NCBI GenBank assembly: GCA_007130345.1
Contig: SLSP01000316.1
Location: forward strand, 1-13,048
Origin: Thermoflexales bacterium
GTDB taxonomy: Bacteria; Chloroflexota; Anaerolineae; B4-G1; SLSP01
Length of the DNA stretch: 13,048 nt
Reading direction: 5' to 3'
This document shows positions 5,387-8,005 of the stretch, piece by piece (position 1 is the stretch's first letter; every line of letters starts with the position of its first letter). Below the pieces are notes generated by a model. The model ran no database searches, was not told the DNA's origin, and saw nothing but the letters and a program-made list of their open reading frames with translations. The position numbers and the translations under genes are program-made.

Positions 5387-8005
5387 TCACGGCCTCACCA
5401 CCGCGTCATCTTTTAAGGGCGTGATGCGGAATCGCTCGTAGACCGTCACGGTGATGTCTGTATCCTCGGCGACTTCCAGGGTGAGGGGATGCGGGTCGAG
5501 CCAGCGGCCGTCGCGCGTGATCCATTTGAGCGTGGGGAGCGCGCCCAGGCCCGGCTGGATGTCGTGCATCCGCGCTGTGCCGTCGCGCTCGGTGAAGCGG
5601 ACGCTGACGGCGTAATCTTCCACCAGCGGACGGATGGGCCGCCAGCGCAGGTCGAGGACGGGCAGCCCGCCACGTTCGACGCGCTTTGCGCCGACCAGCA
5701 CCATCTCGCCGCCGAAGGGCGCGTAGACCGCGTCCGCGTCCGGCGCGGGCAGCGGCACGCTCCACAACGGGACGGCGCTCCCATCCAGCCGGGTGAAGGT
5801 GAATTCTGGCGGCTGGCCTGGTTCCACCGGCAGGCGCACCGTCTGGCAGCGCGCCGCGCTCAGGGGATGGACGAGGGCGTGCGCCTCGCCCGTGCGCTCG
5901 TCACCCGCGTGGACGATCAGCGCGTCGCCGGGGCCGCACCAGTGGAGGTAGGCCGTGGTCTGCTCGCCGACGTGGTAATCCACGCCGCGCAGCCAGGGGC
6001 CGCCGGGCGTCACGCCCAGGTGGACGCGCCCGGTAGGCAGGGTGGGGAAGGCGCAGGTCGGCGCAAGAGGCGGAAGCTCCACCGCGCCCAAATCCTGGAA
6101 CGCGCCATCGCTGACGGTGTAGACGCCCAGGGTCGGCGTGGCGCTCCCGGCGCAGCGATCCACCGGCAGCGCGAGGTCGAGCGCGGCGAAGCGTACCTCG
6201 CCGGGGGCCGCGTCACTGCCGAGCCAGCGGTCGGATTGCGCCAGCAGCGCGCCATCGCTTCCCCACAGCCGCCCGGTGAACGAGGGCGCGGGTTCCTGCT
6301 GGCCGCTGGCCTGCCACGCGACGTGCAGCTCCAGCGGGCGACCGGGGCGCGCTTCCCCCATCCACCGATAGCCCAGGACGCGCGCGCTACCCAGGTCGGC
6401 CTCCAGCGGCGTGTAGCCGAGCGATTCCGGCAGCGCGGTCAGCGGGCGGCGGAAGAGCCGGTAGCCCCCGCCAACCGGCGCGAACGTCCAGCCGGGCCAG
6501 TCGTAGACGTGGGTGCTGAACAGCGGACGTTCGCCCGCCGTCTCGGCCCGCATCCGCCAGACCGCGTCGTACTCCTCCCCCGCGACGGGGTAGACGTAGG
6601 CCACCTCGACGCCGGGGGCCAGGCCCTCCTCGGCTTGCAGCACCCACATCGGCGTGGCCCAGTGCCAATCCGCCAGCACCAGCGCGCCTTCCGGGGCGGC
6701 GTGCAGCAGCGGGGCGACCCGCTCGCGGATGGAGGTATCGGCGGCGAGGACGGCGAAATCGGGCAGGCGCGTGGCGAACGGGACGAACACGGGCAGGGTC
6801 GCCAGCAGGAGCAGGGGCCAGCGGCGGTGGAGGCGCAGCGCTTCGATGAGCGCGGCGCTGCCCAGGCCGAGCGTCAGCGCCATCGGGACGTAGGCCGGCG
6901 CCAGGTACTCGATGGTCTGCGGGGCGCGGTAGGTGATGGTGACGAAGGTATGCGCGGCCCATCCCACGCTGAGGGCCAGGGCGAGTTTGCTTGAGGGACA
7001 CAAATTTAACGCAAAGGCGCAAAGGCGCAAAGGCGCGGAGTTTTTCATTTTGCTCTTTGCCCTTTGCCCTTTGCCCAAGAGCAGCCAGAGCCAACTTGCG
7101 ACGATAGCGGCGAGGAGCGGCGGCGCGAACTGCTGGCGGAAGAGCGTGGGCAGCAGCGGGACGCGCATCTGCAAGTCGGCGAGGGTGGCGAAGGCGAACA
7201 TATCCCCGCCGAAGCCGCGCGCCAGGACGTGGCCCCAGAATCCGCCCCAGGTCGCCAGATTGCCGGGGGCCAGCGGTACGCCGGGCATCGCGTCGCGCAG
7301 GGGGAGGTAGAGTTGCGGGAGCAGCCAGGCGGCAGCGCCCACGAGGGCGGCCCGCCACCAGCGGCGCGGCTCGACGAACAGGCGGGCGTCGGCGAGGAGC
7401 AGGTAGGCGGCCCAACTCAGCGCCACGAACGCCAGCGAGGGATGATGCCCCACGCCCAATCCGAGCGCGAGGGCCAGTTCGCACAAGGCGCGCTCACGAG
7501 CGCGTTTGCCGGGATGGGCGGCGTAGTGGCCGAGCGCCAGGAAGCCCCACGCGGTGAAGAGCAAGGTCGGCATCCTGATATTGGCGATGGTCGCCTGCGC
7601 CCAGAAGGTCGCCGCGCTGCCCAGGAGCAGGGCGGCGATGAGGCCGCCGCTGCGGGCGGCGCGCTCGGTCTGCCCCACCACCAGCGCCCATACCCGCGTC
7701 GCTGCGTAGAGCAGGGCCAGCGTGGTGGCCGCGAGGGCCGCGCTCAACAGGTTGAGGCGGAAGGCCTGGCTACCGAGTAGCACGCTTCCCAGGGGCAAGA
7801 GGCGTGTCCACAGCGCGCCGACGATGGTGTAGAGCGGGTAGCCGGGCGGATGCGCAATCCCCCACCCGGCCGCGATCAACTGGAACTCGCCGCTGTCGGC
7901 GGGGAGCACGTCGCGGGCGGTGGTGACGGCGTAGAGCAAGAAGGCCGCCAACCACAGGGCGGCCAGCGTCACGCGGTTGCGGCGGAAAGCGGTGGGGCGT
8001 TTCAT
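5387..8005 (-). CDS. DUF2723 (TMEM260-like, GT-C fold glycosyltransferase-like) polytopic membrane protein with a large C-terminal soluble domain
   Basis: 872-873 aa. The N-terminal signature LPADSGEF..GIAHPPGYPLYT is characteristic of DUF2723 as I remember it. There are many TM helices in the first roughly 450 aa, then a soluble domain. The start is ATG 8003-8005 or TTG 8006-8008, with no clear Shine-Dalgarno. The frame runs uninterrupted through the AT-rich palindromic repeat at 6988-7079. Confidence 0.65.
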   Translation of the reverse strand: MKRPTAFRRNRVTLAALWLAAFLLYAVTTARDVLPADSGEFQLIAAGWGIAHPPGYPLYTIVGALWTRLLPLGSVLLGSQAFRLNLLSAALAATTLALLYAATRVWALVVGQTERAARSGGLIAALLLGSAATFWAQATIANIRMPTLLFTAWGFLALGHYAAHPGKRARERALCELALALGLGVGHHPSLAFVALSWAAYLLLADARLFVEPRRWWRAALVGAAAWLLPQLYLPLRDAMPGVPLAPGNLATWGGFWGHVLARGFGGDMFAFATLADLQMRVPLLPTLFRQQFAPPLLAAIVASWLWLLLGKGQRAKSKMKNSAPLRLCAFALNLCPSSKLALALSVGWAAHTFVTITYRAPQTIEYLAPAYVPMALTLGLGSAALIEALRLHRRWPLLLLATLPVFVPFATRLPDFAVLAADTSIRERVAPLLHAAPEGALVLADWHWATPMWVLQAEEGLAPGVEVAYVYPVAGEEYDAVWRMRAETAGERPLFSTHVYDWPGWTFAPVGGGYRLFRRPLTALPESLGYTPLEADLGSARVLGYRWMGEARPGRPLELHVAWQASGQQEPAPSFTGRLWGSDGALLAQSDRWLGSDAAPGEVRFAALDLALPVDRCAGSATPTLGVYTVSDGAFQDLGAVELPPLAPTCAFPTLPTGRVHLGVTPGGPWLRGVDYHVGEQTTAYLHWCGPGDALIVHAGDERTGEAHALVHPLSAARCQTVRLPVEPGQPPEFTFTRLDGSAVPLWSVPLPAPDADAVYAPFGGEMVLVGAKRVERGGLPVLDLRWRPIRPLVEDYAVSVRFTERDGTARMHDIQPGLGALPTLKWITRDGRWLDPHPLTLEVAEDTDITVTVYERFRITPLKDDAVVRP
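6988..7079. repeat. AT-rich palindromic tandem-repeat block inside the DUF2723 coding sequence: three copies of GCAAAGGC facing three copies of CTTTGCC
   Basis: Plus strand reads ..acgcaaaggcgcaaaggcgcaaaggcgcggagtttttcattttgctctttgccctttgccctttgccc... The arms are mutually complementary (GGCAAAG / CTTTGCC). The block is about 45% GC in a roughly 67% GC gene. Read in the gene frame it encodes GKGQRAKSKMKNSAPLRLCAFALNLCPSSK between hydrophobic segments. Confidence 0.7.

Follow-up and report, generated by a model that had tools for sequence, protein, structure and literature searches.

How does a hairpin-forming block of short tandem repeats come to be read, in frame, in the middle of a gene for a membrane glycosyltransferase? 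The block lies in a stretch of 13,048 nucleotides (the window) of contig SLSP01000316.1, from a Thermoflexales bacterium of the Chloroflexota, within a minus-strand gene (5387-8005) encoding an 872-aa membrane protein of the TMEM260-like / DUF2723 type. A first interpretation made from the letters alone (the sequence-only reading) took the block for a phase-variable contingency locus, and offered as an alternative an insertion, resembling a transposable element of the miniature inverted-repeat kind (MITE), that happened to land in frame. Our analysis favours the alternative: the block is probably a translated passenger copy of a dispersed palindromic repeat, inserted in the ancestor of a small clade and tolerated as a loop, with no switch function.

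On the plus strand, Tandem Repeats Finder (TRF) reports (CGCAAAGG)x3.4 at 7010-7036 (100% matches, score 54) and (TTTGCCC)x4.0 at 7049-7076 (95% matches, score 49), and a repeat search of the window recovers these arrays as inverted arms facing each other, each with three full units. From position 6990 this strand reads CTTGAGGGACACAAATTTAA-CGCAAAGG-CGCAAAGG-CGCAAAGG-CGCGGAGTTTTTCATTTTGCTC-TTTGCCC-TTTGCCC-TTTGCCC-AAGAG. A scan for chains of at least three CTTTGCG-like units found both arms in the window and nothing in 200 shuffles of it. Read on the coding strand, the 5' arm (7049-7076) is (GGGCAAA)x4, of period 7 with a degenerate innermost unit GAGCAAA, and the 3' arm (7010-7036) is (CCTTTGCG)x3, of period 8. 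Between them, at 7037-7048, lies the central part of an A-rich loop, whose full 17 nt, AAAAUGAAAAACUCCGC, extend a little way into the degenerate inner units of the two arms. The coding-strand RNA is computed to form a hairpin of ~22 bp in which a G, the eighth base of each 3'-arm unit, bulges out at intervals of 7 bp. The two inverted arrays of 8- and 7-nt units inside an open reading frame (ORF), and their capacity to fold, are therefore as first described. The fold (-32.7 kcal/mol, z = -2.07; 3 of 200 shuffles fold equally well) is only moderately better than chance for its composition, and z falls to -1.4 to -1.9 once the GC-rich flanks are added. The base composition needs correcting: the GC content is 50% at 6988-7079 and 48.7% in the inserted 78 nt, against 71.6% in the host gene, rather than about 45% in a gene of about 67%.

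Comparison with orthologues indicates that this segment was added to the gene. In an alignment of 23 orthologues only the window protein and P0002, which is 87% identical, contain it, and the remaining sequences have a short turn, LLR-RDGK-LA, at the site. The distance between the motifs LFxxQF and TYRAPQT is 44 aa in 118 of the 124 homologues that carry both; P0002 and the window clade have 70 aa between them, P0121 has 66 aa and one other protein 50 aa. By these alignments and distances, the net insertion amounts to exactly 26 codons (78 nt, GKGQRAKSKMKNSAPLRLCAFALNLC), is specific to the clade and occupies 6998-7075 of the window, on the minus strand. The segment of about 30 residues that had been proposed for such an alignment is thus an insertion, and no orthologue outside one small clade has it. 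The ORF translates straight through the block, giving ...LLLGKGQRAKSKMKNSAPLRLCAFALNLCPSSKLALA..., and since stop codons are absent from four of the insert's six frames and, in its tandem units, from all frames, an open landing was not unlikely. On the coding strand the 3' junction, CCCTCAAGCAAA (6986-6997), repeats the 5' junction, CTCTTGGGCAAA (7070-7081), imperfectly and in direct orientation. The two have GCAAA in common, together with the ancestral G-K codon pair GGCAAA, and uninserted orthologues read ...GACGGCAAACTGGCG... at this point; the direct repeat may represent a duplication or a microhomology.

What was inserted belongs to a dispersed family. The 3' arm and tail of the window copy (CTTTGCGNCTTTGCGTTAAA) match a repeat of the form TTTAAC-(GCAAAGNC)n-loop-(GNCTTTGC)n-GTTAAA, here called the CGCAAAG type, and the coding-strand terminus GTTAAAT at 7004-7010 (TTTAAC on the plus strand, 7005-7010) matches the GTTAAA family end. 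The two-arm pattern GCAAANGGCAAA-N15-45-TTTGCGNCTTTGC occurs at 29 loci in a species-representative genome collection, where by our own estimate ~0.5 would be expected by chance. These loci span Acidobacteriota (mainly Pyrinomonadaceae, Blastocatellia), Chloroflexota, Bacteroidota, Verrucomicrobiota, Planctomycetota, Desulfuromonadota and others, and many of them, like the window copy, have after the last CTTTGCG unit a GTTAAA tail that the pattern did not demand. The tail signature CTTTGCGNCTTTGCGTTAAA is found in at least 120 stretches of JGI metagenomes and in 10 viral contigs; the reversed pattern, used as a control, gave no match in viral contigs. A complementary TTAACGCAAAG arm lies no more than 220 nt upstream in half of 128 metagenome elements, against 6 of 118 downstream control windows. 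In its canonical form the element is TT[TC]AAC-(GCAAAG-R-C)2-4, a variable loop and (G-Y-CTTTGC)2-4-GTTAAA(A); it measures 48-215 nt, and its loop often holds further tandem repeats of 7-9 nt. A logo of 58 complete elements displays the terminal inverted repeats TT[TC]AACGCAAAG...CTTTGCGTTAAA, of which the window copy has the canonical form at its 3' end only. In one subfamily, present in Thermoflexia, Pyrinomonadaceae and Chloracidobacterium, the 5' arm is of the 7-nt and the 3' arm of the 8-nt kind, as in the window; selection on the reading frame therefore does not account for the 7/8 asymmetry. Segment and family together bear out the alternative of a repeat that landed in frame, the former being confined to one small clade and the latter dispersed.

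Most copies of the family are intergenic, often wedged between a stop codon and the next start, and the adjoining genes are unrelated housekeeping genes (nadB, murA, valS, tpiA, purB, ruvA, nuoK, gatA). Several contigs hold two or three copies within 1-3 kb, and in the genome of a sister lineage of the window another arm, degenerate, lies between genes at a distance of 5.8 kb. In many copies the GTTAAA(A) end comes only 3-10 nt before a housekeeping start codon (for example in the metagenome loci L088, L108, L151, L098 and L145), leaving no room for a Shine-Dalgarno sequence. Copies open in frame, as candidate insertions, are seen in other proteins as well: a 7/8-type copy (LTQRRKDAGTLRYFLPFA) falls in the juxtamembrane linker, itself variable, of an Acidobacteria Ser/Thr kinase-TolB protein (L015 3361-3408, L035 6945-6992), and L023, from Caldilineaceae, has a similar copy in a membrane protein. 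Rfam scans of the window and 20 family loci gave no family at gathering score, only sub-threshold miRNA-hairpin noise. Exact-string searches of the searchable literature did not return the unit strings, and keyword searches returned general literature on MITEs and on repetitive extragenic palindromic (REP) sequences only; the family appears to be undescribed.

The protein that received this copy matches Pfam PF11028 (TMEM260-like / DUF2723, protein O-mannosyltransferase-like, GT-C fold) at 3.1e-22 over residues 38-205, and its C-terminal part consists of beta-rich domains. Its 623 homologues come almost all from metagenome-assembled genomes (MAGs) of Anaerolineae and are named DUF2723 or protein O-mannosyltransferase family. 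An AlphaFold2 (AF2) model built with 23 sequences reached a predicted TM-score (pTM) of 0.86, and Foldseek matched its membrane part to ArnT (5f15, TM-score normalised to target 0.54), Pmt4 (9i5k, 0.53) and also Pmt1-Pmt2. The repeat tract falls at codon 312 of 872, in the middle of the gene. Modelled with a per-residue confidence (pLDDT) of 53-55, the insert forms coil with a short helix at 327-333, and the helices on either side of it (295-310 and 337-358) are modelled with pLDDT ~94. As modelled, the insert is accommodated in a loop without disrupting the fold and with the reading frame kept; the lysine-rich loop between hydrophobic helices that had been read from the translation corresponds to this low-confidence, lysine- and arginine-rich loop between two predicted membrane helices. 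The ancestral turn is rich in arginine and lysine, the insert contributes six further residues of these kinds, and by the positive-inside rule turn and insert would fit a cytoplasmic loop. Elsewhere in the protein, residues 75-79 (LLGSQ) form a 5-residue insertion found only in window-type proteins and not in P0121 or P0002. Some orthologues have arrays of their own in a different loop, as in L158 (aa 379-429, gene at 3001), L159 (aa 331-381) and L160 (aa 383-427). One such array is (GCAAATCR)x10 followed by (TCCCTAC)x7, which gives peptide repeats of period 8 and 7, and these are the only two periods among the periodic peptides of 120 homologues.

The history of the site can be followed in related lineages. 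The window contig, on record as P0122, has longer versions, L006 and L157, and the window-type element and protein are identical in three assemblies. In a sister lineage (L001-L005), ~12% diverged from the window, the protein is identical on eight Logan contigs from at least five sequencing runs. The elements of the window and L001 are equal in length and share the A-rich loop, and identity is 85.9% in the element and 87.5-87.9% in the flanks; the element therefore evolves no faster than the host gene. The unit changes that separate the two are concerted, all three 7-mers having changed from G to T and two of the three 8-mers from C to T, which implies some turnover or conversion of units, yet no net change in length. 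Pairing is lost in the L001 allele (-16.9 kcal/mol, z +1.0), and the gene is intact.

A third lineage, L156, is closer to the window, with a protein (P0121) that is 93% identical and DNA flanks that are 94.5-96.8% identical, yet its element cannot be aligned with that of the window. At exactly the same codon position (L156 2819-2897) it carries a near-perfect (CACAGAGN)n hairpin (-47.4 kcal/mol, z -9.7). This insert, 66 nt long and set between the same junctions (CTTGG on one side, AAAYTNGCC on the other), reads AAAATCAC-CACAGAGA-CACAGAGAG-CACAGAGA-loop-TCTGTGC-TCTCTGTG-TCTCCGTG-GT. Both it and the window allele are bounded by direct repeats that match imperfectly and take in GGNAAA, the ancestral G-K codons. 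Five alleles, drawn from at least 12 assemblies, all keep the frame (lengths of 78, 78 and 66 nt), and among at least 12 independent contigs there is no out-of-frame or length-variant allele. By parsimony on the sequence identities, the CGCAAAG-type insert would be ancestral to the clade and the L156 lineage would have acquired its hairpin, of a CACAGAG type, later; replacement, gene conversion and fresh insertion into an empty allele are all possible routes. The decayed, the bulged and the perfect hairpin of another family at this one site may be viewed as a natural time series of entry, decay and replacement inside a coding sequence.

The CACAGAG type is a dispersed family too. Its signature CACAGAGNCACAGAGNNCACAGAG is found in at least 120 stretches in viral contigs alone, with up to five copies per 11 kb and in sequences whose GC fraction ranges from 0.32 to 0.73, and its canonical ends are (A-rich)-TTCAC-CACAGAG...CTCTGTG-GTGAA-(T-rich). 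Aligned, the ends of the two families give TTYAMC-RCARAG and agree at 8 of 12 positions, and mixed arrays occur, for example in L174; on these grounds the families are related. One may speculate that both belong to one undescribed 'foldback' superfamily, spread over many phyla and phage contigs, with TTYAMC-RCARAG ends and arms of tandem octamers, whose members would move by hairpin- or site-targeting without target duplication, swap with one another at the same position, as between the window and L156, and on occasion become domesticated as protein loops. We put this forward tentatively, as a possibility that we ourselves think doubtful.

With these observations in mind, the following course of events can be proposed. 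In the common ancestor of a small clade of Anaerolineae, the gene of a GT-C glycosyltransferase would have received a copy of the repeat, within the codons for a short turn of positive charge that joins two transmembrane helices. The ribosome could read straight through it, since the length of the insert is a multiple of three and its arms contain no stops in any frame, and the enzyme would from then on have borne a flexible loop of 26 residues, first rich in lysine and arginine and then hydrophobic. According to this model the element is selfish or neutral DNA within a gene, whose frame is held by purifying selection on the host gene. After its insertion it would have drifted at the rate of the gene, leaving a bulged hairpin in the window lineage and none in the sister lineage, in which pairing was lost, and in the third, closer lineage a perfect hairpin of the related family would have come to occupy the same site.

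Several points weigh against the passenger-repeat explanation. Two hairpin families at one site in proteins that are 93% identical are not what random insertion predicts, and hint at site or hairpin targeting, or at some function. The readable 18.5 kb of the source genome contain a single copy; the search for the same block elsewhere, as the sequence-only reading had advised, succeeded in many other genomes and gave no further copy in these 18.5 kb. In the window copy the canonical TTTAAC is missing from the 5' end, and the 5' arm is of 7 nt rather than 8. No target-site duplication is detectable, as the flanks of 59 complete elements are not enriched in direct repeats, whatever the offset or length; no transposase partner turned up, in an analysis in which inverted pairs were only listed and no search was aimed at an autonomous element. 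On this evidence the description 'MITE-like' holds as far as the in-frame insertion of a dispersed repeat is concerned, and does not extend to a MITE as strictly defined. A search with the translated element peptide against 5.8 billion proteins gave no match. Finally, the alleles compared are consensus assemblies, from which minority frameshift variants can escape.

This last point bears on whether the tract could act as a switch. As a contingency locus, it would gain or lose a unit of 7 or 8 nt by slipped-strand mispairing, shifting the frame and turning the glycosyltransferase off or on. The unit lengths are such that a single-unit change would have this effect, the host is a surface or protein glycosylation-type enzyme, the concerted changes between window and L001 imply some turnover or conversion, and other orthologues carry longer in-frame 7/8-nt arrays. 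However, contingency tracts are typically many units long, as frequent slippage requires, and the arms here have three units only (TRF copy numbers 3.4 and 4.0), mid-gene. Unit number and total length are the same across lineages ~12% diverged (window, L157, L006, L001-L005), in an element that changes no faster than its gene, and none of the assembled alleles is frameshifted. Even the longer arrays of other orthologues are constant in length within clusters of at least 99% identity, of up to 14 contigs, in which all length differences are N-terminal start-codon calls. The phase-variable locus first proposed is on this evidence highly improbable. The block might also have a local origin, in which the GGCAAA codons of the ancestor were duplicated in tandem and quasi-palindrome template switching took place, with no mobile element involved. 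The ancestral site does hold GGCAAA (in L159, GACGGCAAACTG), identical to the start of the repeat unit, and many orthologues grew 7/8-nt arrays in another loop. Against this, the 28-nt CCTTTGCGCCTTTGCGCCTTTGCGTTAAA, which includes the non-repeat tail, matches the terminus of the family, itself found at 120 or more unrelated metagenome loci and in many phyla, the L156 allele likewise fits the canonical ends of the second family, and the independent rise of both matches would be an extreme coincidence. Because arm and tail match the family exactly, a local origin is very unlikely.

A different kind of explanation makes the hairpin the selected feature and the peptide incidental: it would act in cis within the ORF, whether by attenuation or termination, as a target of RNase III or by making translation pause after a transmembrane helix. 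The window hairpin is strong and that of L156 very strong, the latter having re-occupied the site, and copies of the family sit tightly between genes with A-rich left and T-rich right flanks, like bidirectional terminators. In L001, however, pairing is gone and the gene is intact; spacer positions of the family are without covariation (G:T 89 against A:C 70); the window copy shows neither a promoter nor a terminator consensus; and 118 of 124 orthologues function without any hairpin at the site. We consider such a role unlikely, and return to a tolerated passenger copy as the probable account of the locus.

Some further identities were tried for the family and rejected. The ends resemble the RYYYAAC...GTTRRRY of an integron attC site; the copies are single, form no arrays and have housekeeping neighbours (murA, valS, tpiA, nuoK, gatA). 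A regulon or transcription-factor site was ruled out by the functionally unrelated downstream genes, and RNA-level selection seen as G.U asymmetry by the same two counts at spacer positions. A portable sigma-70 promoter (TTGCGT-N16-TAAAAT) found no support in a consensus scan at the window copy.

The window holds a few other features of note. A 13-nt palindrome, GACTTCSGAAGTC, forms three inverted pairs, all intergenic (6 matches, with 0.01 expected by chance), at 8018-8058 in the spacer between the transketolase and DUF2723 genes, at 11946-11984 in the spacer between a major vault protein (MVP) gene and an SDR gene, and in degenerate form at 10183-10195 and 10232-10244; it represents a second, REP-like dispersed palindrome family in this genome. 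The degenerate pair lies upstream of two overlapping small ORFs on the plus strand, 10313-10641 and 10638-11015, in ~1 kb of lower GC content that has no gene call in the source record. The second ORF matches the TumE toxin family (PF20126, 4.6e-14), the first is probably its antitoxin, and the two look like an unannotated toxin-antitoxin pair. At 11990-13048, on the minus strand, is the C-terminal part of an 879-aa MVP homologue in an Anaerolineae MAG, with the MVP shoulder domain (7e-49) and Vault repeats; the full gene is at L006 3377-6016.

For the host gene our conclusion is deflationary, the repeat being in all likelihood no phase-variation switch, and the 26 additional residues should be annotated as a repeat-derived loop. 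For palindromic repeats, the locus would add a case outside Rickettsia and Proteobacteria of an element translated inside an essential-looking membrane enzyme, and it has exposed two related, very widespread families of tandem-octamer hairpins in soil and sediment bacteria and in viral contigs, neither of which turned up in Rfam or the searchable literature.

The closest parallels among known systems are the Rickettsia palindromic elements (RPEs), reportedly described by Ogata and colleagues in 2000, and the intragenic REP-type repeats. Repeats of the latter type are palindromic and inserted in frame in genes (Di Nocera et al. 2013, PMC3733652), and for the CGTC/RPE type no transposase of its own is known (PMC3733652). 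Like the element studied here, RPEs and intragenic REPs are short dispersed palindromes set in frame within protein-coding genes; in their case the translated copies form extra loops in many unrelated proteins, which they do not destroy. They differ in structure: the arms here are built of tandem units of 7-8 nt (CGCAAAGN), variable in number, around a long and variable loop, with no GTAG or CGTC terminal tag in a defined position, whereas RPEs and REPs have a single stem of 8-9 bp. RPEs are confined to one genus, and the present repeat occurs in many phyla and in viral contigs, mostly between genes. From the REP repeats associated with tyrosine transposases (REP/RAYT) it is set apart by its ends, TTTAAC / TTCAC, and by its stems of 20-35 bp of tandem units.

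With MITEs the family shares a size of ~50-215 nt, terminal inverted repeats, a non-coding nature and a dispersed distribution, sometimes with several copies per few kb. With no target-site duplication detected, it is not demonstrable as a MITE, and the outer flanks of each copy show a weak palindromic tendency (5.45 against 4.21 complementary positions) that would not be expected of a cut-and-paste element. Contingency loci resemble it in having tandem units that are not multiples of three within the ORF of a glycosylation-type enzyme, but here there are three units per arm, and neither repeat-number polymorphism nor frameshifted alleles. Inverted arms of short tandem repeats characterise the foldback elements of eukaryotes, and in cyanobacteria heptamer arrays (STRR) and tiny palindromic repeats (SDR) can sit in genes; the likeness to these is one of architecture only, as organisms, unit sequences and sizes differ. 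In-frame insertion of a palindromic repeat is therefore a phenomenon already known, and it is the element family itself that appears to be new.

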